From Octopus vulgaris (taxonomy: Eukaryota): DNA of 64,000 nt. The notes under the pieces were generated by a model. That model was not told where the DNA came from. It made no database searches and saw nothing but the letters and a program-made list of their open reading frames with translations. The DNA lies in the NCBI GenBank assembly GCA_951406725.2, contig OX597820.1:2852001-2916000 (forward strand), in the 5' to 3' direction. Made by a program: the position numbers and the translations under genes. This document shows positions 5,881 to 52,224 of this stretch, piece after piece (position 1 is the first letter of the stretch; every line of letters starts with the position of its first letter).

Positions 5881-6070
5881 TTTTCTTTATTGCCCACAGG
5901 GGGCTAAACATATAGGGGACAAACAAATACAAACAAACGGATTAAGTCGATTACATCGACCCCAGTACGTCACTGGTACTTAATTTATCGACCCCGAAAA
6001 GATGAAAGGTAAAGTCGACCTCGGCGGAATTTGAACTCTTCGCCCGGCGTGCTAACGATTCTGCCAGTTC
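5881..6070 (-). mobile_element. MetaSINE with Tx1-type (A) tail, internal deletion in head
   Basis: TTTCTTTATTGCCCACAGGGGGCTAAACA tail, Meta-like domain, B box. Confidence 0.85.
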
Positions 6071-6876: not shown

Positions 6877-7276
6877 TCTTTTCTACTCTAGGCACAAGGC
6901 TCGAAATTTTGGGAGAGGGGCCCAGTCGATTAGATCGACCCCTGTACGCTACTGGTACTTTATTTCATCGACTCCGAAAGGATGAAAGGCAAAGTCGACC
7001 TCGGCGGAATTTGAACTCAGAACGTAAAAACGGAAGAAATATCTATTTCTTTACTACCCACAAGAGGCTAAACATAGAGAGGACAAACAAGGACAGACAA
7101 ACGGATTAAGTCGATTATATCGACCCCAGTGCGTAACTGGTACTTATTTAATCGACCCCGAAAGGATGAAAGGCAAAGTCGACCTCGGCGGAATTTGAAC
7201 TCAGAACGTAACGGCAGACGAAATACCACAAAGCATTTCGCCCGGCGTGCTAACGATTCTGCCAGCTCGCCGCCTT
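6877..7276 (-). mobile_element. Nested MetaSINE: A-tail copy (from 7044) inserted in the head of a B-tail copy
   Basis: Outer 15-bp TSD CAGAATTGA(T/C)CATAA at 6862-6876 and 7277-7291; two bodies but one head; junction GAAATATC|TATTTCTTT at 7043/7044. Confidence 0.85.
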
Positions 7277-7560: not shown

Positions 7561-7780
7561 CTTTTCTACTCTAGGCACAAGGCCCGACATTTTTGAGGGG
7601 GAGGGGGACCAGTCGATTAGATCGACTCCATTACGCAACTGGTACTTAGTTTATCGACCCCGAAAGGATGAAAAGCAAAGTCAACCTCGGTGGAATTTGA
7701 ACTCAGAACATAAAGACAGACGAAATACTGCTAAGCATTTCGCCCGGCGTGCTAACGTTTCTGCCAGCTCCTCGCCGCCG
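7561..7780 (-). mobile_element. Uninterrupted MetaSINE with B-type tail
   Basis: A box, intact CAGACGAAATACTGCTAAGCATTTCG site, B box, Meta-like GCTTTTCATCCTTTCGGGGTCGATAAA, tail GGCCTTGTGCCTAGAGTAGAAAAG. Confidence 0.85.
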
Positions 7781-13310: not shown

Positions 13311-13952
13311 AAAAACTACGTTCGAAGATACTGTACTTGATATGGGCGGTAATGCCTTGCCGGTCTATGGCCTACCTTCAACAAACCGGGAAGGCACAAA
13401 CACTCTGTCTTCACATTTGCTGCGTGAGACATGTTTTAATGTTGACGAGCTTGCCGAGTACATAGCCGACAATGAGCCAAAGCTCCTTCCAGAACAGAAG
13501 TTCGCTTACAACTCCGTTGTTAATTCAGTCCGGGCCAAAGCTGTGGGGATATTTTTCCTGAACGCTCCTGGGGGCACTGGGAAAACTTTTCTCAACAAAT
13601 TAATATTGGCTGAGATTAGGCGAACACAAGGCATTACCCTAGCTGTGGCATCATCTGGAATTGCGGCTACTTTGTTGCCAGGCGGCAGGACAGCTCACTC
13701 CACTTTCAAGCTTCCGCTTGACTTAGCGAAGACTGAGACACCAACTTGCAACATCAGTAACAGCTCCGATCAGGCAGAAGTCTTCAGACCATGCAAGCTT
13801 ATCGTTTGGGATGAATGCACGATGGCCTATAGAGGTGCTCTTAAGGCACTAGATAGATCTCTCAGAGACATCAAACACTCTTCAGCTCCCATGGGAGGCA
13901 TAACACTTCTTCTTTCAGGGGACTTCCGACAAACACTTCCCGTTATTCCCAA
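13311..13952 (+). pseudogene. Helitron RepHel fragment (Pif1-family helicase motifs I-III)
   Basis: ORF 13342-13980: APGGTGKTFL, VASSGIAATLLPGGRTAHSTFKLP, IVWDECTM, LLSGDFRQTLPVIP; truncated at both ends. Confidence 0.9.
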
Positions 13953-14916
13953 GTACGAAGCACGAGTACATGGAATATGAACAATTCTTTCGAACAACGA
14001 AAGACACAAATGGAAAGCAAACCAAACAACATAAAGAACGACCCTTCATCAGTTGTTGGCTGTTTTTCAAGTCTCGTGCGCCCGAGTGCGCGCGTGTGTG
14101 TGTGTGTTTGTCAATGTAACTTAGCGGTTCACCAAAAGAGGCCAATACAATAAGTGCTAGGCTTACAAAGAATAAGTCCTGTGGTCGATTTGTTTGACTA
14201 AAGGCGGTGCTCCAGCATGGCAGCAGTCAAATGACTGAAACAAGTAAAAGAATAAAAGAATATAAATACGATAATGGTAGAGGAGGAGGAGGGGAGACTC
14301 AAAAGATATAAAAATAATATTTTAATTGTCGTCTGTTGTGAGGCAAACAAAGTGTATTTTGGGGCCGGCGAGAGGCGTCTGCCAGCTTGAGTTTGGGACA
14401 CTCCTGACATTTATTTTCCCTGTAAATTCACAATTAAAAAAGTTATTAGCCTTTAAAATTTGCAAAATTTGGGTATTTTAGCCAACCAGAAGCGCGTATT
14501 TTAGGCATCGCCGTGGCGAAGAAGTCTGTATAGTAATCATAGCAGAGAAGCACCACGTGTTTCATAGCTGATTGCAAAGAACTGTTTCCATAGGAACCAA
14601 AGATGCTGCGCATTGCACAAAGAGAGTAACCACCACTTGTTCTATAATTGTTTGTTTTCATAACAGATGGAACTCAACAATTTTAGTTTAATGTTTTGAC
14701 ATGCCGATGTCCCCACCCCCACCCCCTGATGATAGAAGAGGCAGCGAACGAGCTGTTTTCTGATTGGCTGAAAATTCTGAAAATTATTAAACTTTGAACA
14801 CCTGTAACATTTTTGCAACATTTTTCTGGAATAAATAAATAAGAAATTCGGATTCAGCGTCAAAAATTACATTTTTATGATACGTTAAAAATTTTGTTTT
14901 AAAGGTAATTTATATA

Positions 14917-16167: not shown

Positions 16168-16934
16168 TCCATAGGAAGCACTCTGAACTGATATTTTATT
16201 TTAAACACCATTTGCCAAAAGCGAAATTTTTTCTCATCGGCAAACCACAATGAAAATACATTTCACTGCTTAAATATATCTCAAACATTCAAACTGATCA
16301 TGAGTTTGATTATAAACAACGATAAATTGTTCGTTCTTCCTGCCTACCTATGCTCCTTTGTCTATCTGTCTGACAATCTGTTTACCTGCAGCCTGTCTCC
16401 CCGCCTCTCTCTCTTTTTCTCAGATGAAGGGACAGCTCTGAAACGTCGCATTGCTTCTCCCTCGTGGCAAACGGATCTATTCAGTACCTATTTCTTTACT
16501 ACCCACAAGGGGCTAAACACAGAGAGGACAAACAAGGACAGACAAACGGATTAAGTCGATTACATCGACCCCAGTGCGTAACTGGTACTTAATTTATCGA
16601 CCCCGAAAGGATGAAAGGCAAAGTCAACCTCAGCGGAATTTGAACTCAGAACATAACAGCAGACGAAATACGAATTTCTTTATTGCCCACCGGGGGCCAA
16701 ACATAGATATGGACAGTACAACTGATGGGATCAGTGAATCGATATGATTTTACATAAATGTGACATCAAAAATAAAATACAATACATAAAAATCGAATGG
16801 AATACACAGTACAAAAACAATACAAATGAAGCGATGATCAAGTTACGCTCCGATCCCACGAGCCCCGATCCCACGAGCCCCGATCTACCGCTGATACCTT
16901 TTTATTTTTCCTTTTTTTTTTTTTCCTCGTCTAT

Positions 16935-19900
16935 TCACACGGTTCCTTGCACGCACAACACTCGTGCAACATACTTCCATCTCTTTTGGAACGTACACTC
17001 TGACAGACACCTCTTCTCCAGCCACAGTTTCCTTTTCAAATGAAAAGAAAAAAAAGGATCGTAAGTTGTGGCCAGAGATAAAGTTGCCTGTCTTAATTCC
17101 TTTTATCCTAGTCTTCCATACAGCCTCTTTTGCTATTGCTACAACCGTGAGAAAACAATTCTTACCTTCGTTCGTTAGAACTCCCGGTGGGTCAATTTTT
17201 ATAATTGACTCAGTCGACAGCCGTACTCTTCCTTCGCCGGACAACAGATGTTCAGCATAAGCCCACATTTCAGTTATCTCCGGACACTGAACAATAGCGT
17301 GAGGGACGGTTTCCCTGTCCCCCCCGCATCTTGGACAGGTCGGCGACTGACGTTTACCATGTCTTGCGAGCTTAACCCAAACGGGCAAGGCACCTCTGTA
17401 GCATTGCCAGGTTAAGGACTTTTGGAAGTTGTCCAACGTTCTCAACCCGAATGTATGATGAAACAAGCTGTCCAGTTGAATAAATCCGAGACCTAGAGTC
17501 GACCCCAGGCCATCGTCGCATTCAGACTCTACCAACCCACTATATAAAATCCGTGTGGAACCCCCACCGCTGGCGTTGCCCGAGCGCCGGAACAGCAAGA
17601 GGGCCTTACGGCACTCTTTATGCCACTCACTCGACCTCGGTCTACGAGAACACCAGGCTTCCTGTTCGCAAAAACTCTTGAACTGAGGGAACATTTGTCT
17701 GACCAGCGGAGACCACACCCGTTCACTATCCAGGAGAATCCAGAGGTGCCTCAACCTCAACGCATCATTAACCAAGGCATCCCTAAACCTCCATTTAAAG
17801 GCTTTTGACAGCAGACAGAGCGTTTCACAAGTGGCGACCTGCCCTTCCACAAAAAGCGAAAGAGCTGTCTCTCCAACCTGATCAACCACGAATCCGGACA
17901 GGGCACGACGGTCAGGCGGTAGGTAATGACCGATGCGATAAACACATTGGCCACTCCCGCACTCCCTTTCAGGGATAGCCACCGCCAAGACCAGGTCTTG
18001 ACTACTGCAGCCACCCTGCTCAACACCTACGTCCAGTTATTCTCTATCTGGAGGCCTGGTCCAAACCAGACTCCCAGCAACTTAACCGGTCCCTCCGTCC
18101 AGCGCCTAACAACACTGTCTGAAGGTATCGACTTGCCAACCCAGGTGCCGAGCTGCAAGCCGACCGACTTTTCCCGGTTAATCTTTGCTCCTGCTACCTC
18201 CTCGTAAGCCTCAATAGTCTTACCTACTTCACGTAGGCGTGCCACTGTGGTTACACTGATAGTGATATCATCCGCGAAAGCCGTAACAAACTCCTCTAGT
18301 CCTGGTTCTCTCGGGATGCCACTCAACCTTTGCAGTAATGGCTCGAGAGCCATCACATACAAAAGTGGTGAAAGCGGACATCCTTGACGAACCGAGCGTC
18401 TGATGCAGAACGGCTTCGAAAGGAAACCGTTCACCCGAACTATCGAGTCAATGTTGTGGTACAAAGCGATAAACCACCTGAGGAAGCCAAGGCCCAGGCC
18501 AAACCGCGCAAGTACAGAAGCTAGGTATCGATGGTCAACCCTATCAAAAGCTTTAGACTGGTCCAAATGCACCAATGCCCCACCTTTGCCAGATTTATTA
18601 CCAAACCTCTCTATGGTATAGCGAATAAGATGGAGGGTATCCTGAATGGTTCTGCCTGGGATGGCACATGTCTGTGCCTCCCCGACTATACCATTCGCGA
18701 CACGCGCCAACCTTTTTGCTAGAACCTTGGCCAAAATCTTCACTTCTGCGTTTAACAGAGTGATGGGCCTGAAATTCTCTAGAACGTCCCCCTTGTCCGG
18801 GTCCTTTCTGACCAACGTCACTACTCCTCGGCGCACAGATCTGGGGATAAACCCATTCTGTTTCCAGTTCGCGTACACGTCAGTCAGTAGTTGCCCGAAC
18901 AAGTCTGGCATACATTTATACAGCTCGTACGGAAGACCATCAAGTCCCGGTGACTTACCCGCTTTACAATCGGCCAAAGCCTCCATCACCTCCTCAGGTG
19001 TGATTGGCCCTTCGCAAGACTCCGCATCCGACCCCGAGAGGCACGGCAGCCCGGTAAGAAAGTCCTCGAGGGCTCTCCCACCACCAGGACCGCCGTCACC
19101 CCCGAACAGCTGGGCGAAGTACTCCCGAAAGACCTCACACATTTTCTCGGGTTCGTTTATCAAGACACCATTTTGATTCGTCAAAGACCGAATAGAGGAA
19201 CTATTTCCTTGCCGAGCTTCCACCACTCGGGCCCATCCAGCGGCTTTGATTCCTTCACTTCCCATTGCACGTAACTTAGCTCTGGTAATACTTCCCATGT
19301 GGTGGGATTCAAGATGCTGGTTTAACTCCAGTCTTTTCACCCTCGCTTGGTCTGTATTACCAGTCCTCCAGGCTTCTTCTAGTTCCTTAACTAGACCATC
19401 TCCTATTTTACGTCCCTTCTTAGCTAAACTTATGCTAAACCTAATAGACTCATATTTGATGGCTCTTTTTAGGGCGTACCACCATTTGTTATTAATGATG
19501 GTACCTGTTAATGCCCTCTGTATTAACATCTTGATCAGCTTTCTGTACTCCTCAATCGCCAAAAGGGACGTATTGAGTTTCCAGTAGCCAGATCCCTGTC
19601 TATGCAACTTATCTACCGTCCGTTTACAGGTAACCATCTTGTGGTCACTGTAGCTGACTAGAAAAAACTGTGGACACTCAACTATGGATTTATCTTTTTC
19701 TCTAATTAATCTAGATATGTTCTGGTAGACCCGTCACTATTTGACCACGTCCACTGTGGAGTGTTCGGGTGCTCCAATCTATATGGATCTGCTAGCTGAA
19801 ATTGACTTAGCAGATCCCGAAAGCCTGGGTTACATTTTCTGTTCATGTTCGAGTTTGAGCCAACACAATCTGTGTGTGCTGCACATATTGTATTAGAGTC

Positions 19901-20320
19901 TCCTAACACTACTAGTGAATGCGACGTGGCTAGGAACTTTCCTAGGCCACGAAAATATTCAGTTTGCGGGCCAATAATGTTTGGTGCGTAAATAGCGACC
20001 AGCCTGATTGTCTTGCCACAACTGAATGTCAAGTCGAGAACGACCAGCCTGCCTTCTGGGTCAGAAAAAAACAACTTTTTCTCGGCTACCCGGTTTCTTT
20101 TTAGTAGGACCAACACCCCACCCCCACCTCCCGCCCGACTCGGAGAAACGTATTTCTCGTAGCCGTTCAGGAGGGGGAACAGATCTCTTGGCCCCTTCAC
20201 CCGGGTTTCCGTTGCAACAATTACATCCAAATTTCTCGACCTGATGTCATTCAGAAAGCGTCCTTGCTTCCAGCTTGACAACAGGCCATGAACATTTAAA
20301 CAACCAATGTGAATAGCCAT
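16935..20320 (-). pseudogene. Tx1 ORF2 (APE endonuclease, reverse transcriptase, C-terminal CCHC), broken by stops and frameshifts
   Basis: GCLNVHGL, ATETR, IYAPN, WTWSN (19706-20323); GYWKLN, KSPGLDGLP, RPITLLN, LDQSKAFDRVDH, VRQGCPLSPLLY, FADD (18027-19637); CPRCGGDRETVPHAIVQC. Confidence 0.93.
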
Positions 20321-20331
20321 CACTTACCTGT

Positions 20332-21860
20332 TTAATTAGGATTGTCCGGTGGAGGGGGACCCTCCACCTTTTTTTGATCCAGGGTCGGAGGTGGACGGTC
20401 TTGGGAAATAGATTTGTCAAAATCCCGTCTCACCACCGACACAGAATTATCAGGTGGAGGAGGAATCTCCACCTTTTCCTTTTCTTGCGGGATCGGAGCT
20501 GGTAATCCATGAAATATCGACTTGTTAAAATCTAATCTCAATGAAGATACAGTCTTTCTGTACTTATTTTGTAGAATTCTATAAGTCTTATTTGAGACTT
20601 CATATATGTCGTAATTGATAAATTCCTCTGAAAGGTTATCAATTTTTTTTACAGTCTTTATGAGTTGAATATCTCTCATGAGCTCAGTATCTTTAGTGTA
20701 TACGGCTATTATGCCTTTTTCTTCTTTTTCTCTTCTGGCAGTCTTTTTTGGTCGTTGTTCTGTAGTAGTTGCCGCTCTCGGCTGGGTTGCTGGTTGTATT
20801 TTTCTTTTGTTTGTTGTTTTTTTCTCATCTGTTTCTTTTTTATCTTCTTCCTCTTTGTCTTTTTTCTCCTCTTCCTCCTCTTCTTCATTTTCCTTGCAGT
20901 TCCTTCGAATGTGGCCTAATTGACCACATAAAAAACATCGAGGTTTTCGGCCCTCAACAAACACCACGAGGTTCTCCTCCCCTACCTCAATTGTCTCAGG
21001 AATTGTTTGAATTATTTTAGGGTCCGCTTGAATGAGAAGATTAATTGTTTGACCATCCCAGCGTGGGTTTTCCGTAGCGGTAGCCTGGAGGAGAGTAATT
21101 TTTTCTACCTCTTTGATTAGGACTGCCGCCAACAACCACATAGGTTCGACCTCTGGCGGGACCCTTGTAATTTTTATTCGCGACGTCCTCATCCCCATAT
21201 AATAGAGGATTAACTCCACGTCGTTCGTTTTCAACGTTTCAACTGAGTTCTTGTGTGCTATTTCTTTATTGGTGAACCTTACTTCCACCGTTCCGAATTT
21301 TTTCCTCTTCTCAGAAATACTACGTCGCCCAATATTGGCTTTAAGCACTTTTCTATTTTCTCTTCTGACATTCTTTCAATTTTTCTTTTTTGTAGACAAT
21401 ATGTTTTGAAATTTATTGTTTTTTGCTTTTCTTCCTGTAATAACTTTTGCGGAGGTTCAATTTTCACACCGTTGTCAGTTATTTCCATCATTTTGCTGTA
21501 TTTCATAATTTCGCTTTTATTCGTCGACAGTATCTGGGTTCCACCCCCAGCAGCCAACGCAAAACTTTTTTTCCATTTTTTGGTTCTATCTGGATGCTAG
21601 GCACATCAATTAATTCTCTTCGACACAATGCCTTTGTTCTCTGGCAAAGTCGGAAACTCTTCTGGTGAAAGTTCTGACGAGCTCTCAGACACATCTCCAA
21701 AAATATCAAATATATTATCCTCTCTGCTATTCCTTCTTGTAGCGGGGGAAACCCCTATTTCCTTGTCTGTAGTTGGCTCCTCGCCGGACATGTATTTCCT
21801 CCTCTCAACAGGAGAAACAAGTATTTCTGCTCCAACGGTAGGCTCCATGCTAGACGACAT
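20332..21860 (-). pseudogene. Tx1 ORF1 (gag-like, CX2CX4HX4C knuckle), frameshifted
   Basis: ORF pieces 21606-21905, 21279-21557/21503-21709 and 20332-21348; VEGRKPRCFLCGQLGHIRRNC; ends 11 nt upstream of the ORF2 ATG. Confidence 0.85.
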
Positions 21861-22946
21861 TCTTCCCACAAAGGGGGAATGAACAACGCGTGCTACCACA
21901 AGCACTAAGTGTTTTCAATTGAAAACTCCAACAGTTAAGTTATTCAACAGTTTAACAAGAAACAACAGTTGTTAACAATATTAACACCAAGAAACAGCAA
22001 TTCTTACCACGAACACATGTGCGACAGACGAAATACGGCTACGCATTTCGCCCGGCGTGCTAACCATTCTGCCAGCTCGCCGCCATTCAGTACCAGGAGC
22101 AACAATAACAGGTAAGACAATAGTAACATCAAAAACAACAGCAGCGGCAGCACCAGCAGTGGCAGCAGCAGCGGCAGCGGCAGCAGCAGCCATACTAGAA
22201 CAGCAAGAAAAAAACTCTGAGCAGTAATGGACTTGCGTAATTATTTTACTTGGAAGAGGCAAAGATCTGCAGAGCTAAGTCTCCAGGAACATAACGGATG
22301 TCTCCAGAGAAATATTTATGCTTCCAGAAACATCCTCGTGTCTTCTGAAACACATGTCCATCATCCGAAGTAACGTATGTCTCTTAGAACATAAATATGT
22401 CTCCAGAGATGTGCACTTCAAGAGACTGCAGAAACGGAACGAGGAGGTTTAACATGGTCACTCTCTATGCCAAAAACAGCAGCCAAATTTGATCAAATCT
22501 TGAAAAGCAGGACACATTCATCACACAGTGTAGTCCTAAATACACAAAAAGACGAGCTGTCCTTAGATCCACCATGATCGTAAATCTGCTCTGTGAGGGC
22601 CGGTTAGGGTCTTGATAAAGATCACCCTCAACCGCTGCAACCACCAACAACAATGGCAACTGCAGTAATATAACAACGGTGATGATGATGATTACCTATT
22701 TTTTCTGAAAGTTATAAAGAAACAAATTCGGTGAGGAATTACACTTGTGTAGGTAAGCGACAACTTTAGTAGGGAGGCCATTGTTTGCACGTGGATTGTT
22801 GAATTTCCTCTTAGATTCGATGACGTCACTGAATTACGTTGTTTTCTGAAACAACGCTGGTTTCATTATCCATGTTGTCATTCACAACATCACACTTCAA
22901 TAGAGTTTCAAACGGAGTACTTAACGCTTGTCACGTATATAAATAA

Positions 22947-22948
<2 letters not shown>

Positions 22949-22977
<29 letters not shown>

Positions 22978-23017
22978 TGTATGTATGTATGTATGTGTGT
23001 GTGTGTGTGTGTGTGTA

Positions 23018-23056
<39 letters not shown>

Positions 23057-23059
23057 GTA

Positions 23060-23094
<35 letters not shown>

Positions 23095-23231
23095 ATGTAT
23101 GTATGTATGTATGTGTGTATGTATGTATGTGTGTGTATGTGTGTGTGTGTGTATGTATGTATGTGTGTGTGTGTGTGTATGTCTGTATGTATGTATGTAT
23201 GTGTGTATGTATGTGTGTGTGTGTGTATGTA

Positions 23232-23262
<31 letters not shown>

Positions 23263-23836
23263 GTGTGTGTATGTATGTATGTGTGTGTGTGTATGTATGT
23301 ATGTACTGTGTGTATGTATGTATGTATGTATGTATGTATGCATGTATGTATGTATGTATGTATGAGTGTATGTATGTATGTATTTATGTATGTATGTATG
23401 TATGTATGTATGCATGTATGTGTGTATGTATGTATGTATGCATGTATGTATGTATGTATTTATGTATGTGTGTATGTATGTATGTGTGTATGTACGTATG
23501 TATGTATGTCTGTATGTATGTATGTAGGTATGTATGTATGTATGTATGTATGTATGTATGTATGTATGTATGTGTGTATGTATGTATGTATGTCTGTATG
23601 TATGTATGTAGGTATGTATGTATGTATGTATGTATGTATGCATGCATGCATGTATGTATGTATGTATGTATGTACGTATGTATGCATGTATGTTATGTAT
23701 GTATGTATGTATGTACGTATGTATGCATGTATGTTATGTATGTATGTATGTATGTGTGTATGTATGTACGTACGTACGTATGTATGTATGTATGTGTGTA
23801 TGTATGTGTGTATGTATGTATGTATGTATGTATGTA

Positions 23837-23867
<31 letters not shown>

Positions 23868-24336
23868 ATGTATGTATGTATGTATGTATGCATGCATGTA
23901 TGTATGTATGTATGTGTGTGTATGTATGTATGTATGTATGTATTTATGTATGTATGTATGTATGTATGTATGTATGTATGTATGTATGTATGTATGTATG
24001 CATGTATGTTATGTATGTATGTATGTACGTATGTATGCATGTATGTTATGTATGTATGTATGTACGTACGTACGTATGTATGTATGTATGTATGTATGTA
24101 TGTATGTGTGTGTATGTATGTATGTATGTGTGTATGTATGTATGTATGTATGTGTGTGTGTATGTACGTATGTATGTATGTATGTGTGTATGTATGTGTG
24201 TATGTATATATGTGTGTATGTATGTATGTATGTGTGTGTGTGTGTATGTATGTGTGTATGTATGTGTATGTATGTATGTATGTATGTATGTATGTATGTA
24301 TGTATGTATGTATGTATGTATGTATGTATGTATGTA
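22949..24336. repeat. About 1.4-kb compound (TATG)n/(TG)n microsatellite
   Basis: Direct reading; source of the spurious MYVC/HTYI ORFs. Confidence 0.98.
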
Positions 24337-25544
24337 TAGGGTGTGTAATATATTTGAGGACAGATTTATGGTTTATAGTAGATATATAACAGATAATAAC
24401 TCTATTTATCAAAAAATACTATGAGGATAAAAATAAACCTTCTTTTCTAGAATGTTATTCAATAAAGCCACCTTCAGCTTCAACAACTGCTTCTATATGA
24501 GATCTAAATCATCGATGCTCAAATCAAGTGGTCTTGGTTCATTTTGGGCATTACTCTGACTATGGCAGCTTTCATAGAATCTTTGGTGTTTTGGGTGTGT
24601 TCATTGACCTCTCTCTCTCTCTCTCAACAATGCTCCACATGTAATTATAGTCAAATGGTTTGAGGTCTGGGGAATCAGGAGGCCAAATGTTTGGGGTTAT
24701 GTGATCATGAAAATTTTCAGCCATCCATTCTTGTGTTACTAGAGCCATGTGTGATAGTGCAGAGTCTTACTGAAACATATATGGCCTTCCATTGCATACA
24801 CTGTCTATTCAAGGCTTAACTGTTATTTTCAGGACCTCAATGTAGGTGGCAGAGTTAACTCTAAGGCCTTGTGGAAAGAAGTAAGGGGACATCACATGTT
24901 CTTCATTGCTGACAACCCCTAAAACCATGACAGTAGCAGGATATTTTGTATGCATAACACTTGGAACTTCAGAAGGGTCTTCATATAATCATCTGTCATT
25001 TCTTCTGTTAACTTTTTTATCTTGGTCGAAGTTTTTCTCGTTTGAGGAAAACCAAATCAAATCTTCTTCTGCTGGATTTTTCAGTTTGTTTAAGAACCTT
25101 TTAGATTTTCTTTTGCTTTTTCTAACATAAATTGACCTTTCCTCATCACATAAGAATTATATCTGATGTCTTCTTGGACAACATTTCTGACTGTTCCTTC
25201 AGACACATGGAGATCTTTTGCAATTGACCCCTTGGACTTTCTGGGATTGTAATTAATGGTCTGTTGAACTTGCCGGGTAAATTCAGGTGTTCTGATGGTT
25301 TCAGAGCATTTAGAATGCTTTGATACTGGTGATACATTTCCATCTTTAGTCTCTAACTCCTTACAAACTTTTCTAAATCGCTATGCTCAGCCTTTATAAC
25401 CACAATAACAGCTTGCCCCTTCATTTGTTAAATAAACCGAGGGTCTACAATTATTATTTTCTGAAACAAAGATTATACAGAGTTAGCAAAATATGCAGCA
25501 ATGACCCAAAAAAAGGTATGTCCTCAAATACCTTATACACCCTG
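24337..25544 (-). mobile_element. Tc1/mariner superfamily DD37D (maT) transposon relic
   Basis: TIRs (C/T)AGGGTGT.TAA..TATTTGAGGACA flanked by TA; minus strand FQ*DSALSH...WPPDSPDLKPFDY with 37 residues between the last two catalytic D. Confidence 0.88.
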
Positions 25545-32046: not shown

Positions 32047-33321
32047 TCCCTTAAATAATGCGGTTTTCTCAATTGCATGAACTAAAAGTCGGTGGGGGAC
32101 GGGATAAACTACCTGCATCAACTTGCTATAAAAGCAGGTAGTAATTTTACCTTGCCCTTATTCTTAGTGCAAACTTTGAAGAGTGTAGTTCGATTTTAAC
32201 AGTTATCTTTTCAAAGCTATAATGGAAGTGACAAAGGAGCATATTTGGCATATTTTGCTTTAAGAGTTCAATAAAGGCAACAATGCAACGGATAGTGCAA
32301 GGAATATTAATGCAGTATATGGGGATCGCACAATAAGCGTAAGCCAGTGTCAACAATGGGTCTAGAAATTCCGAGCGGGAAACTACAGTCTAGATGAGCC
32401 TTGTCCTGGAAGATCTGTAGAGTTTGACAAGGATGACCTGCAAACCCCGGTGGAACAAAATACCATTGTATCTGTTGGGGAACTAGCAGAGAAGCTTGGA
32501 TTTGGTCATTCAACCATTTATCGACACCTGTGTGTCACTGGAAAAATTAGCAAATTTGGTCAATGCATTCCTCACAAACTTTCTGAGTCTAATCACATGC
32601 AGAGAGTGAATGTGTGCTCTTCTTTGCTGTCACGTCCCATGAATGAACCTTTTTTTGGATCGAATAGTGTCTGGTGACAAGAAATGGGTTCTCTATAAAA
32701 ATGTCAAGTGCCAAAGACAGTAGGCAGGAAAAGGGGAAATACCAGCACCCCAGGCTAAAGAAGGTCTTCATCTATGTAAGGTGTTGCTATCTGTTTGGTG
32801 GGATATGAAAGGTTTAATCCATTTCGAACTTTTAAACCCAAACCAAATGATAACAAAGGAGATCTACTGTGAGCAGCTTGAGCGGCTTCAGACAGTGCCA
32901 GAAGAAAAACAACCATGTTTGGTTTCCAAGACGAAAGGTGTTCTTCCATCGGGATAATGCTCGGCCACATACAGTGAGGATGACATACCAAGGACTGGAC
33001 CAATTTGAATGGGAAATGATGCCCCACTCACCATATTCACCGAATATTGAACCCATCTGATTATCATTTATTCTGCAGTCTTCAAAATCATTTGGATAGA
33101 AAAATATGAATTCCGTAGACGAGGTCAGAACAGTACTGGAGGAGTATTTTTAATCACGGATGAGTGAATTTTGGAAAAGGAGCCTTGTAAGTCTACCGGA
33201 TAGATGGAAGAGCATTGTAGAAAATGAAGGAGAGTATATTTGAGATTAAAAAAGAGCTTTATCTTAATTTTGAAAAATAAAAGAAGTATAAAAAAACTGC
33301 ATTATTTATGGGATGACCCAA
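32047..33321 (+). mobile_element. mariner (DD34D-type) transposon with pseudogenised transposase, about 32222-33250
   Basis: CIPHKL, SGDKKW, HRDNARPH, HSPYSPNIEPSDY motifs; right TIR ATTATTTATGGGATGACCCAA+TA, partly deleted left TIR; inserted at TA inside a MetaSINE. Confidence 0.9.
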
Positions 33322-33623: not shown

Positions 33624-34913
33624 AAACAATTGCAGCATGGAAGGTGTTTATAAGCTATTTAAAAACACACAAAAACCGTCAGATTCACTTCAACATTTAA
33701 ATTTAATTTCCCAAAATATTTTTGTCACTTTGAGACTGCGACCTGTTCACTGACAAAATTCTGTGCTGCATCTCAAAATTTTGTAAGAGAACAGGTCGCG
33801 ATACCAAAGTGACAAAAATATTTTGGGAAATTAAATTTAATGCAATGCAATGGGTGTGAGGTTATGACCTTTTTAACTGGTTGAAATCCTTCATTCTCAG
33901 CCGAAAGGAGGTAGTCACAGTTCTAGGACAGCATTCTACACCATATGAGATGTCATCGGGTGTACCACAGGGATCTGTCCTTGGTCCCCTCTTGTTTGTG
34001 GCATACATTAATGACATAGATGCCAATTTAAAGAATGCCACAGTATTGAAATATGCAGACGACATCAAGCTGTACCTTGAAATCAAGAGGACTGATCCTG
34101 ATGTCTACAACTCTTTCCTGCAATCAGACCTAGACACAATGCAGCAATGGATCACAGACTGGCAACTGAAACTGGCTGTGGACAAGTGTACCACCATGCA
34201 TTTTGGGAGAAAAAACCCTGCGTCCACATACTCCCTCCACAACACTGATATCAAGAAATCCTCTTGCGAGCGTGACCTAGGCATCACTGTCAGCAGTGAT
34301 TTGCATTGGACAAAGCATATCTCTAAAATTGTCAAGAAGGCCGAGGGTGTCTTGGCATCACTCAGCAAGACCTTTTATTAGCCGCTCTCCAGCCATCTAT
34401 TTAAAACTGTATACAGCTATGGTATGACCACACTTGGAATTCGCATCATCAGTTTGGAACCCCTATCTTGCTCAGAACATTGACCTCCTGGAATCTGTCC
34501 AGAGACGTGCAACCAAACGCATACCCTCCATCAGACACCTACCATATTCTGAGCGCCTTGTTTCCCTGGGCATGGATTCACTGAAGCTCTGGCGTCTGGC
34601 AACGGACTTGGTAAACACCCACAAAGTTATCAACCACCTCACCAACAACAACACTGAACACCTTTTTGATCTCCATGTGTCAACACACGTGGACATGCCT
34701 ACAAAGTCAGAAAACAACACAGCTCCCATGACTTTCGGAAACATTTCTTCACGCTCAGAGTTGCTGAAGCACGGAATAAACTGCCTGCGTCAGTTGTTGA
34801 CTGCCATGACACTGCATCCTTTAAGGCCCTCATGCTTTCCGAAATCCGCCGAAACTACACCTGATTATATATACACTTTAGATGAGTTGTAGTGCACCTG
34901 AGCACTGTACACA

Positions 34914-34958
<45 letters not shown>

Positions 34959-42690: not shown

Positions 42691-43254
42691 CACTAGGGTA
42701 ACTAGAGTGTGTGCCGCTTGTGGTGGCCCTTCCGTTTGCCACCCCTGGACCCCACAAAAGGCACATATTTATTTCTTTATTGCCCACAGGGGGCTAAATG
42801 TAGAGGGCACAAACAAGGACAAACAAAGGAATTAAGTCGATTACATCGACCCCAGTGAGTAACTGGTACTTATTTAATCGACCCCGAAAGGATGAAAGGC
42901 AAAGTCGACCTCGGTGGAATTTGTACTCAGAAATACCTATTTCTTTACTACCCACAAGGGGCTAAACACAGAGGGGACAAACAAGGCCAGACAAACGGAT
43001 TAAGTCGATTACATCGATCCCCAGTGCGTAACTGGTACTTAATTTATCGACCCCGAAAGGATGAAAGGCAAAGTCGACCTCGACAGAATTTGAACTCAGA
43101 AATACCGCAAAGCATTTCGCCCGGCGTGCTAACGTTTCTGCCAGCTCGCCAAAAGAGACATATTGCCTACAGCAGACTCCAAAGTGGTACCCCTTTAGAA
43201 GTGCCACCCGGGGCAGACCGTCCCCACCGTGCTCCTACCTTAGCTACGCTAGTA
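42691..43254. mobile_element. hAT-like MITE hosting a nested SINE pair
   Basis: TIR CACTAGGGTAACT / AGCTACGCTAGTA; 8-bp TSD CCTAGTGT/CCTGGTGT. Confidence 0.75.
42770..43149 (-). mobile_element. MetaSINE (A tail) with a second A-tail copy inserted in its head
   Basis: Outer TSD CAAAAGGCACATATT/CAAAAGAGACATATT; inner 13-bp duplication ACTCAGAAATACC at 42925-42937 and 43094-43106. Confidence 0.88.
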
Positions 43255-47294: not shown

Positions 47295-47966
47295 GACGTT
47301 TTACACGCAACAGACGACATGCTGTCATGGATCCAAATGGAAAGAGCAGACGATACATCACGTGACCAACAATGTCGTTCTGTTTGTTCAGTCACAGGTC
47401 AGTCCTGATTGAACAGACTTATGATTAAGTGTACATGATTAACGAATTATACACTTTTAGAACTAAGCCTAGAACTACATTATCTAATGCGTCCTTTCTT
47501 TTGCTTTTTTTTTCTCAACACAATAGGATGCGATAGAAGGGAGATTTGGCTGCTATTTCTAGCAGATCCATCGACTATATAAAGACTCTAAATGTGAATG
47601 ACTAAACATTTTCGTGGTGTTGCTTGCTACATGTGTTGTTTCCAGTTCTATCTTTGTCGGTCATTGGAATGCAGCCATGCTGGAGCACCGCATTCAAGGG
47701 ACTTAATGCACAAATCAAACGCAGTACTTTTTTTTTTATTTTTAAAGTCCGGCACTTATTTCATCGTTTTCCTTTGTCGCACTGCTATGTTACGGAGACG
47801 TAACTAAACCAACGCCGGTTGTCAAACGGTGGCGGAACTGACACAAACACACACACTAGCGTAGCAGGGGTGGGGAATGGTCCGCCCCGGGCGGGACTTT
47901 TGGGTCTGCAGTAGGCAGTGTGCTTTTTGTGGGGTCCAGGGTCGCAAACAGAAGGGCCGCCCCGGG

Positions 47967-48563: not shown

Positions 48564-48655
48564 GCCCCGGGCGGCAACACACACACACACATGTATATGT
48601 ATGTATGTATGTATGTATGTAAGTGTAACAACGGGCTTCTTTAGTTTCTGTCTAC

Positions 48656-51629
48656 GTGGAAGAGAGATACCAGCTGGTCTGAGTGCTCTCTACCCACAAT
48701 AACTAAAAAGACTACAGCAACTCAGGGAAACTAAGCCAGAACAACCTGCCATCCTCTACACACCATCATAAACTGCGAGCAGGGTACAAATTGTTGTCCT
48801 TAAATGCTCGCAGTTTATGCAACAAAATACATTTGTTCAACGCCTACGTCAGAAGTGTTGACCCTGACTTCATCACTGTCACGGAAACATGGGCGCATTC
48901 CTTACTCTGTGATGGGGTTTTCAACATTACGGGGTACAACCTCTTCCGTAAGGACCGCACTAACCGCCGTGGTGGTGGTGTGATGGTCTACGTTCGTTCA
49001 AATTTTTTGGTAATTCCTTGTGCCGATTTGAACGAATGACAAGAAGAAGTTTTTTTCTGTGACGTGCGTATGACCATGTCAACACTCCTGCTTGGCGTTG
49101 TTTATCGTCCCCCAAGTTACCATCGGGACACACAGCTTTGCAATGTCCTCCGAGCTGCTGCCAGGAAAACAGCCACTTATGTGTTTATTGCAGGCGATTT
49201 CAATCATCCTGAGATCGATTGGGAGACCTTCCATTGGCCACAGAGTGCAAACGATTTTGTTGAGCTTGTGCTGGACTCAAACTGGTCACAAGTAGTCACC
49301 TCTCCAACAAGAGGCGACAACACCTTGGACCTGCTCTTCACCACAACTCCTGAAGCGGTTATCAATTGCACTACGGAGGAACCTCTAGGTGACTCTGATC
49401 ATGCTATGATCATCGCCAATCTGGCTCTTGCGGGCAACAAAAACCTGAACCATCTCCAATCTGCTTCCTTCGATTGGAAGAGAGCAGATTGGAACCTGTA
49501 CCACACTGAACTACAGCACCCAAACTGGCGTGAATTCTACAACTCTGGAGATGTGAATACTATACTCCAGAGTATCCTGGACTCAATATGGGCAGCATGT
49601 GCAGCATCAGTGCCACGTAAACAAAAAAAGAAGAACCGCCCCAAAAGGGCAATTTGGGAAACTTCAGCGGTCCGACTTGCCAGGAGGGAACGTCGGACTG
49701 CTGAACGGGAATACAGGTTGCATAAATCAGACACCAACAGGAAGAAGCGGAATAAATCCTCCAACCATCTCAAGCAAGTGACAAAAAAAGCAGTGCTTGA
49801 ATTTGAACAGTGCATAGCAGCCAATCCTAACAGCAAGGTTTTCTGGAAATATGTGCACTCAAAGCAGAGACCTCACTCTCCAGTGGGCCCTCTTCGCAAC
49901 CCTCACACAAACCAGATCACTGACGACCCCAAGGAATGCGCAGAACTCATTGCCGAGTGCTATGCAAACATATTCACTGTTGAAAGTCAAAATGTACCAT
50001 CTTCACCATCACTAACAGCAAACTCCATAACAATTATGGAATTTACACCTGCAATGCTGCGACGTCACCTTCAAAATAAGTGCAACTATGCCTCCCCTGG
50101 TCTCGATGGAGTTACATACCTGCTTCTCAAACGTGGCAGGCACTTCCTTTTACACCAGCTTTCTATTTTCTTCCAGTACTGTCTCAACAATGGTGCTACT
50201 CCGGAGCAGTGGAAAACTGCCAGTGTCATTCCTCTGTTCAAAAAGGGCGACCGCACATCACCTGTCAACTATCGCCCAGTCAGTCTCACTAGCTGTATTG
50301 CAAAACTGATGGAATCGTGTGTCAGAGAAACACTCTGGAACTTCTGGAGCTCTCACAGTCTCATCCGACCCTCACAATATGGATTTGTCCCTAACTCCAG
50401 CTGCAGTGACCAGCTTGTCGAGTTCCTTGAGGACATTACTCAGATTACTGACAGTGGCTCATGGGTGGATGTTGTCTACCTTGACTTTGCTAAGGCTTTC
50501 AACTCTGTGCCACACAAAAGGCTTATGGTGAAACTCTATGCAATGGGTGTGGGGGATGACCTTTTTAACTGGTTGAAATCCTTCATCCTCAGCCGAAAGG
50601 AGGTAGTCACAGTTCTAGGACAGCACTCTACACCATATGAGATGTCATCGGGTGTACCACAGGGATCTGTCCTTGGTCCCCTCTTGTTTGTGGCATACAT
50701 TAACGACATAGATGCCAATTTAAAGAATGCCACAGTATTGGAATATGCAGACGACATCAAGCTGTACCTTGAAATCAAGAGGACAGATCCTGATGTCTAC
50801 AACTCTTTCCTGCAATCAGACCTAGACACAATGCAGCAATGGATCACAGACTGGCAACTGAAACTGGCTGTGGACAAGTGTACCACCATGCATTTTGGGA
50901 GAAAAAACCCTGCGTTCACATACTCCCTCCACAACACTGATATCAAGAAATCCTCTTGCGAGCGTGACCTAGGCATCACTGTCAGCAGTGATTTGCGTTG
51001 GTCAAAGCATATCTCTAAGATTGTCAGGAAGGCCGAGGGTGTCTTGGCATCACTCAGCAGGTCTTTTGTTAGCCGCTCTCCAGCCATCTATTTAAAACTG
51101 TATACAGCTATGGTACGACCACACTTGGAATTCGCATCATCAGTTTGGAACCCCTATCTTGCACAGAACATTGACCTCCTGGAATCTGTCCAGAGACGTG
51201 CAACCAAACGCATACCCTCCATCAGACACCTACCATATTCTGAGCGCCTTGTTTCCCTGGGCATGGATTCACTGAAGCTCCGGCGTTTGGCGACGGACTT
51301 GGTAAACACCCACAAAGTTATCAACCACCTCACCAACAACAACACTGAACACCTTTTTGATCTCCATGTGTCTAACACACGTGGACATGCCTACAAAGTC
51401 AGATAACAATACAGCTCCCATGACTTTCGGAAACATTTTTTCACGCTCAGAGTTGCTGAAGCATGGAATAAACTGCCTGCGTCAGTTGTTGACTGCCATG
51501 ACACTGCATCCTTTAAGGCCCTCATGCTTTCCGAAATCCGCCGAAACTACACCTGATTATATATACACTTTAGATGAGTTGTAGTGCACCTGAGCACTGT
51601 ACACAATTATTATTATTATTATTATTATT
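48656..51629 (+). mobile_element. CR1-group LINE: end of ORF1 plus nearly intact ORF2 (APE-RT), inserted in a CORE SINE
   Basis: SLNARSL, TETW, GDFN, DLLF, SDH, YRPVSLTS, YLDFAKAF, GVPQGSVLGP, YADD; premature stops ending at 49039 and 51406; (ATT)n tail; SINE halves join across it. Confidence 0.93.
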
Positions 51630-52224
51630 AAATCCACTCAGAAGGGCTTTAGTTAGGTCTGAGGCTATAAAACAAGACTCTTGCCGAAGGTGCGGCGCAG
51701 TGGGACTGAACCCAAAACCATGTGGTTGGGACGCAAACTTCTTACCACAGCCATTATTGGGAAAGAAACTAAAACCGTGTTGCCATATTTGGCCGGGACG
51801 TGTTGTAACTCCGTGGATGTGTTAGTCTTATAAATGTGCGGAATGCGTCGGTTCGGAAACCGAAAATGACGGAGTGTGGAATTGGAGGAAGTGAGGCTAA
51901 CATAGCTACGGAGTGTAGAATTGAGTGATTGATGACATATCATGTGGGATGCAGAGAGAGAGAGAGAGTGTGAGTGAGAGAGAGAGAGAGAGAGAGAGAA
52001 ATGGAGAAGCGACGAAGGTGGGTGGGGCAGGAAAAGAATAACAGATTGAGGCTGCTTACTTGAAATGTTTTCCTGCATCAACAAGTCGATGTTGAGAGAG
52101 AGAGAGAGAAAAAGCGAGAGAGAGAGAGAGAGAGATGAGCAAACACAGTGTAGCCGCGATTAGAGAGGGAAAGAATGAAACTAGACAAGAGCTGTTTTAG
52201 AGAAATGATGACAGACAGACAAGC

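Follow-up and report, generated by a model that had tools for sequence, protein, structure and literature searches.

The analysed window, a 64,000-nucleotide stretch of the Octopus vulgaris contig OX597820.1, contains a LINE that lies within a tRNA-type SINE, splitting this host copy between its A box and its B box and bounded by a 13-bp target-site duplication (TSD). The LINE and its duplication comprise the following parts.

16673-22024, minus strand: full-length Tx1-like LINE of 5352 bp, recognised by its ORFs, Pfam domains, TSD and family contigs; private indels and one stop break this copy.
20335-21860, minus strand: ORF1 with a CCHC zinc knuckle, in pieces (ORFs, Pfam); family indels at 21612, 21565 and 21297 fall at the frame breaks.
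16885-20320, minus strand: ORF2 (AP endonuclease, RT, zf-RVT), in pieces (ORFs, Pfam); family differences at 19708, 18029 and 17760 fall at the breaks.
16674-16707, minus strand: LINE 3′ tail of 34 nt, common to the SINE, with AATAAA at 16684-16679 and without poly(A) (pattern scan, contigs leaving at 16707).
16660-16672, minus strand: 3′ copy of the LINE TSD, 13 bp of SINE sequence between A and B box, 13/13 identical to 22025-22037.
22025-22037, minus strand: 5′ copy of the LINE TSD, 13 bp, starting with C as the 3′ copy does; of the 7 further window SINE sites shown, none has this C.

Pfam assigns to the LINE the domains zf-CCHC (5.5e-5), Exo_endo_phos (4.4e-8), RVT_1 (3.2e-30) and zf-RVT (1.3e-7), that is, a CCHC knuckle in ORF1 combined with an AP endonuclease, an RT and a C-terminal zinc-binding domain in ORF2, the domain set of the Tx1 clade. 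The RT scores 288 and 274 bits against 'Transposon TX1 149 kDa' proteins and 147 bits against human L1 ORF2p, values that come from two different searches and rely, for TX1, on automatic protein names. Among named proteins, the closest come from Argonauta (62%, 47%) and cuttlefish (46%), and in an RT tree of 26 rows, built without curated Tx1 or L1 references, the LINE groups with two Argonauta proteins and one unnamed protein (100/99). The Tx1 identity given in the initial annotation is thus retained in the form 'Tx1-like', on the Pfam domains and the higher bit scores to TX1-named proteins than to human L1. Searches with blastn and tblastn return no second Tx1 fragment in the window. The 3′ UTR carries a 15-bp tandem unit (16850-16885), present with one unit fewer in a contig from sequencing run X1, and a 1.4-kb (TATG)n array of 351 copies (22948-24337) begins about 900 bp from the 5′ end of the LINE.

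The SINE sequences that surround the LINE or recur elsewhere in the window are as follows.

22025-22084, minus strand: 5′ half of the host SINE, A-box-like motif at 22074-22064 (window alignments, box patterns).
16489-16672, minus strand: 3′ half of the host SINE, B-box-like motif at 16647-16636, tail A (variant 2) at 16523-16489 (window alignments, box patterns).
22085-22094, minus strand: 5′ copy of the host SINE TSD, 10 bp, starting GGTA like the LINE target; 10/10 identical to 16479-16488.
16479-16488, minus strand: 3′ copy of the host SINE TSD, 10 bp, identical to 22085-22094.
42770-43150, minus strand: SINE-in-SINE, in which a tail-A unit ends at 42938 right before the LINE target base; outer 15-bp TSD with 2 mismatches (alignments, junction scan).
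6877-7276, minus strand: SINE dimer, a full tail-A unit (ending at 7044) followed by a headless tail-B unit that starts at the LINE target base; outer 15-bp TSD with 1 mismatch (alignments, junction scan).
5881-6070, minus strand: tail-A SINE monomer whose tail is of variant 1, which comes nearest to that of the LINE, with an internal deletion, off the SINE site and with no TSD found (alignments).
7561-7780, minus strand: uninterrupted SINE with the same head and body and tail B; an empty target site without the LINE tail (alignments).

A single SINE head and body thus occurs in the window with two tails: the LINE-like tail A (five ends, in two variants) and the unrelated tail B (three ends). 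Motifs resembling the A and B boxes are recognised by our own patterns in five heads and seven bodies, and TSDs were found for four of the five elements examined; short, interspersed, box-bearing and flanked by duplications, these copies have the characters of a tRNA-derived SINE. ARAGORN and Rfam detect no tRNA gene and no relevant Rfam match in the window, the SINEBase rule demanding 60% or more identity to a tRNA across 60 nt. The SINE may resemble the octopus tRNA-derived CORE SINEs OR1/OR2, which are candidates for its family. The host SINE is off the majority at 10 of 155 positions, and the three most alike bodies (94-96%) carry the tail variant that is further from this LINE (28/34). 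For tail B (7612-7556, 6920-6877 and 8086-8041, all on the minus strand), none of the LINE ends in the window is a match. The dimer at 43150 is itself nested in another small repeat (43260-42690), which is uninterrupted at 5498-5380 and partial at 47919-47961.

The element common to both partners is a 34-nt stretch formed by the LINE 3′ end (16707-16674 in sense) and the SINE tails. Across these 34 positions the LINE is identical to the five tail-A ends at 30, 28, 28, 30 and 28, and the similarity stops there, with only 2-4 of the next 16 upstream bases identical. A 31-nt tail pattern has three matches in the window, at 5882 (0 mismatches), at the LINE end at 16675 (2) and at 42772 (2), and none in 100 shuffles; a variant pattern has four, exact at 7046, 16491 and 42940, and again none in shuffles. 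The tail strings quoted in the initial annotation are therefore all present in the window and absent from shuffles, and the close LINE/SINE match described there is borne out at 28-30 of 34 positions, except that the copy at 42772 is not identical to that at 5882. The strings had been quoted as reverse complements, however, and the LINE and the SINEs all lie on the minus strand; the interval 16489-16715 given there is mostly the 3′ half of the host SINE. Poly(A), said to be lacking from both partners, is indeed absent after the LINE and after four of the five SINE tails; the copy at 5882, by contrast, terminates in seven A residues. Within the LINE tail, AATAAA (16684-16679) stands 5 nt from the end. 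The tail sits inside the 13-bp TSD and is therefore part of the LINE element. A common 3′ terminal sequence, the mark of stringent LINE/SINE pairs, is accordingly found in all five tail-A SINEs and also in a contig of the LINE family. A structured tail is unsupported: a 4-bp hairpin appears in the minimum-energy fold of four of six tails, but with z between -0.03 and -0.92 none of these few copies folds significantly better than its shuffles.

Insertion of the LINE has left the A and B boxes of the host SINE 5.4 kb apart. An internal Pol III promoter needs both boxes in place, so that the promoter of this host copy is predicted, from its anatomy, to be broken. The proposal that the LINE disables SINE promoters is consistent with the parted boxes here, but a family of about 100 copies would hit only a small share of SINE promoters.

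Analysis of the junctions reveals that the site entered by the LINE is also used by SINEs. The window contains three instances of the sequence 'tail, then target site', at the LINE (16673) and within the SINE dimers at 7044 and 42938; none appears in shuffles. Two of the five tail-A ends adjoin the LINE's exact target base in another SINE, for which the rough chance is 6e-8 if the ends are independent, whereas none of the three tail-B ends does; small as these numbers are, the tail-A SINE shares the target preference of the LINE in the manner described for SINEU. The SINE had been proposed as a target for the machinery that shares its tail, and the copies ending at the LINE's own target base uphold this. 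The remaining three tail-A ends lie off the SINE site; one of them, that of the host SINE, has a TSD that starts GGTA in non-SINE DNA. TSD lengths, whose comparison the initial annotation had proposed, were rejected as a discriminator because the ranges overlap (10 and 15 bp for tail A, 9 and 15 bp for tail B).

The two dimers differ in their history. In the 43150-42770 dimer, the inner duplication (43106-43094 and 42937-42925) is 13/13 identical and has the length of the LINE's TSD. Its units are 89% alike, which speaks against a recent tandem duplication, and share a 16-bp deletion; the pattern is that expected if the LINE's enzyme had inserted one SINE into another that already carried the 16-bp deletion. 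In the 7276-6877 dimer, the inner 13-mers differ at 3 of 13 positions and the second unit matches another subfamily, for which reasons a fresh local nested insertion was dropped as its explanation. The differing 13-mers, taken with the outer 15-bp TSD, suggest that this dimer was later re-copied as a unit, and it reads best as a target-site junction that may have formed once and then spread as a dimer.

Relatives of the LINE were followed in contigs of four of 24 sequencing runs (X1, X7, X13 and X14), aligned on 16640-22058; the comparison rests on those listed, namely 40 of 167 substitutions, 24 of 825 loose ends and 32 of 31,272 pieces. X1 contig 1 (1358 nt) aligns over its full length with 18000-16643, covering the 3′ UTR and the tail and reaching 30 nt into the SINE target, at a depth of 9.8, like the rest of the LINE, and is the only such contig among those listed, from one run of the four. 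It is a collapsed de Bruijn path in which 65 letters bridge the boundary between UTR and tail and 30 letters lie on the SINE side, one below the 31-letter bridging bar. At the opposite end, X7 contig 32 extends 27 nt beyond the LINE 5′ end into the SINE head, an overlap that likewise falls below this bar. The differences between the X1 and X7 contigs and the window copy fall precisely on the frame breaks of the latter (indels at 19708, 17760, 21612, 21565 and 21297, stop at 18029), and the contigs therefore derive from other copies, although the two runs have nearly all variants in common and may not be independent. The tail is thus a feature of the family rather than a locus-specific SINE fragment, the distinction on which the initial annotation had staked its case. 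LINE-in-SINE with a shared tail is real, and family-wide as far as the contigs show.

The family appears to retain open reading frames in these contigs and, at 0.9% divergence between the window copy and the X1/X7 contigs, is by this measure young. The ratio of main-path to single-variant depth comes to about 100-110 in X13 and to 35-86 in X14, rough values in which depth is no copy number, and the family may comprise roughly 100 copies. Depth over 16640-22058 is about equal at the LINE 5′ and 3′ ends; most copies therefore seem to be full length, an unusual state for a LINE of the L1 superfamily. Contigs that leave the reference at 16707 into SINE body, the edge of the shared tail, number 83 in X13 and 66 in X14. 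In X14, two single-copy contigs, of LINE or SINE origin, show a tail joined to SINE-head sequence, one of them 11 nt and the other about 27 nt upstream of the usual base, which suggests a small target window. Many contigs that are 90-95% alike accompany the main family.

Other LINEs and other sources of sequence were compared with the tail. Both CR1-like LINE copies of the window terminate in (TTA)n, lack the shared tail, a point in favour of the initial annotation, and were rejected as partners of tail A or tail B, their ends matching neither. These CR1/Jockey-like copies (48650-51630 and 33845-34940, both on the plus strand) are 97.5% alike over 1095 bp, and in one of them a frame of 788 codons, including endonuclease and RT, is still open. 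Neither the viral contigs nor the metagenome contigs contain the SINE core pattern. Among metagenome relatives of the LINE, 0 of 80 carry the tail, SINE or 3′ UTR (80 of 463 confirmed loci), relatives so distant (23-40% identity) as to be uninformative on octopods. The window further contains a PIF1 helicase fragment (13312-13980, plus strand, 3e-51), probably a Helitron piece, and a region at about 32150-33320 (plus strand) that by eye resembles a decayed mariner-type transposase.

Four other explanations of the LINE/SINE association were weighed against this evidence. The first, which we regard as unlikely, reverses the direction of transfer: the LINE took its tail from the SINE that it targets, by read-through or a founder template switch, another LINE moves the SINE, and the dimers arose by SINE-SINE homology or by RNA template jumps. 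Read-through would be easy for a LINE lying upstream of the SINE 3′ half in the same direction, the SINE copies are older than the LINE family, the tail supplies the LINE with AATAAA, and just 34 nt without a significant fold are shared. Dimers made by homology, however, are not expected to fall twice at the LINE's exact insertion base, with different second units and in one case with a 13-bp duplication, and the CR1-like LINEs of the window, with their (TTA)n ends, do not carry the tail.

A second explanation dispenses with targeting altogether. One Tx1-in-SINE insertion would have multiplied together with its SINE flanks, as a composite or within a larger repeat, so that tail and flank are shared by descent. 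This is improbable, because both copies of the LINE TSD carry the C that is private to the host SINE, which indicates that the duplication was made in this host and that the insertion is independent. Moreover, the host SINE is more decayed than the LINE, and insertions of SINEs alone use the same base. Over the 30-nt flank the host departs from an intact copy at 3 positions, and the unlisted differences of X1 contig 1 likewise number exactly 3, an agreement in count that would fit a different host. Copying as a composite does agree with the similar main-contig depth at the two ends, by which most copies look full length, with the 10-bp TSD that bounds the composite in the window, and with contigs that break inside the SINE, where outer flanks are not visible.

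Very improbable, in our assessment, is a third explanation, in which the LINE is directed to a cellular Pol III gene, namely a tRNA, or to a short motif of the type GGTAY, and enters the SINE as by-catch owing to its abundance. The site does fall within a tRNA-type head, with the A box on one side and the B box on the other, the TSD of the host SINE starts with GGTA in non-SINE DNA, and Tx1 families target varied multicopy sequences (PMC4494074); against this, the family contigs from X1 and X7 enter SINE sequence at both ends, and the window is without a tRNA gene or Rfam match. The last explanation, that the 34 nt are a SINE scrap at one locus beside a LINE that ends earlier, is suggested by the resemblance of the stretch to a SINE tail and by the adjoining SINE, but it is largely refuted, and its probability negligible, since the stretch lies inside the 13-bp TSD and a family contig from other copies carries it.

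The reading that we consider probable is that the Tx1-like LINE, which shares its tail with one tail class of the SINE, provides the endonuclease and RT that target the SINE site and copy the tail-A SINE in trans. This partner reading gains independent support from the SINE dimers. Mechanistically, the endonuclease would nick just before the GGTATTTC site and again about 13 bp on, and the RT would begin at a set position within the tail rather than in poly(A). Poly(A) cleavage falls 10-30 nt downstream of AATAAA. With this signal 5 nt from its end, the LINE RNA could run some bases into the target, and a transcript with 6-26 nt of target is predicted to base-pair at the nick, in the manner reported for R1Bm. 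The RNA of tail-A SINEs would be accepted in trans by the same machinery, a single template switch may have given the SINE its tail, and tail-bearing SINEs would have inherited a weak form of the target preference, from which SINE dimers could result.

This LINE family is not the sole driver of the SINE, because the host SINE (10/155) is older than the LINE copy (0.9%) and the most alike SINE bodies carry the further tail variant. Older relatives of the family would have done most of the SINE copying; by this reasoning, older or sister Tx1 families, perhaps those represented by the contigs that are 90-95% alike, must have been responsible. The 'closed loop' between mobiliser and target, as the initial annotation put it, stands as regards the LINE in the SINE and the shared tail, but not as regards its closure: the loop is real but open, because the SINE also lands elsewhere (three of five tail-A ends) and tail-B SINEs supply the same target.

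A broader proposal, which we advance tentatively and hold to be possible though slightly less probable than its contrary, is that, for a major octopus SINE, the partner recognising the tail is an animal Tx1 lineage with an endonuclease tuned to the Pol III promoter region of that SINE. Such a lineage would breed its own safe landing sites, knock out the promoter of each copy entered, and make dimeric SINE families by steering SINE into SINE at one base. If true, this would give part of the octopus SINE expansion an autonomous partner and would present a mobile element that makes its own safe harbour, while SINE-into-SINE insertion at one base would offer a simple route to dimeric SINEs. Because the family appears to have open frames in the run contigs, tail dependence and target choice are testable in cells.

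In the literature searched, with Repbase reports outside the search, there is no report of a tail shared between a Tx1 LINE and a SINE or of a Tx1 LINE targeting its own SINE. The accessible parts of PMC13282606, PMC8967140, PMC4758252, PMC4824008, PMC3531059, PMC10294476, PMC8869645 and PMC7265360 contain no octopus Tx1-SINE link, and in PMC8869645 no passage on SINEs turned up. SINEs make up 11.6% of the O. vulgaris assembly (PMC13282606), and OR1/OR2 are named as octopus tRNA-derived CORE SINEs (PMC4758252, PMC4824008); they and the SINE of the window have in common an octopod genome, a tRNA-type head and great abundance.

Tail sharing as such is well known. The accessible text of Ohshima 2013 counts 58 SINEs with LINE tails, of which 0 have a Tx1 partner and 3 have L1 tails (PMC3747384). 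UnaL2/UnaSINE1 and the L1-clade pairs LINE1-1_ZM/ZmSINE2,3 and L1-1_CR/SINEX-3_CR resemble the octopus pair in that SINE and LINE end alike, whereas the tails of stringent pairs such as UnaL2 have supported stem-loops and terminal repeats, and the octopus tail has no significant fold and no terminal repeat (PMC3747384). An animal Tx1 case would, if true, add to the very few L1-superfamily LINEs that share a tail with a SINE and bear on whether stringent 3′ recognition is ancestral in the L1 superfamily (PMC3747384). The proposed pairing has its model in R1Bm and SART1, site-specific AP-endonuclease LINEs in which target-like RNA 3′ bases may pair with nicked DNA and, for R1Bm, are needed to do so; those elements belong to the R1 clade, target rDNA or telomeres and have no SINE partner described in the accessible text (PMC7265360), and in the octopus LINE the pairing is predicted.

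Among Tx1-clade elements, Tx1L in Tx1D (Xenopus), Keno (U2), Kibi and Koshi combine an AP endonuclease with a defined multicopy site, as the octopus LINE does, but the sequences described in the accessible text as their targets comprise a DNA transposon, an snRNA gene and microsatellites, and none is a SINE moved by the LINE itself (PMC4494074). Kojima's rule for a target-specific Tx1 family is that more than 20% of flanks are of one type (PMC4494074); in the octopus family, contigs from X1 (3′ end) and X7 (5′ end) enter the SINE site, an observation made on contigs rather than copy by copy. The closest parallel is the Tx1-Mar LINEs of crocodilians, which prefer another mobile element as target, a preference shared by 13-90% of SINEU copies (Kojima 2015, PMC4494074). 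There, as here, a Tx1 LINE targets a mobile element and a SINE shares its target preference; the shared target, which has more than one hot spot, is taken as evidence of trans-mobilisation (PMC4494074). The two systems differ in three respects. SINEU heads derive from U1/U2 (PMC4494074), whereas the octopus SINE has a tRNA-type head, with A and B boxes and no Rfam snRNA match. The Tx1-Mar/SINEU link consists of shared targets and shared 5′ heads, with no shared 3′ tail reported in the accessible text (PMC4494074), whereas the octopus SINE shares the 3′ 34 nt of the LINE. Finally, the target of Tx1-Mar and SINEU is a third element, Mariner-N4_AMi (PMC4494074), and in octopus it is the SINE itself. 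What is new relative to Tx1-Mar/SINEU is therefore that mobiliser, passenger and target would be reduced to two elements.
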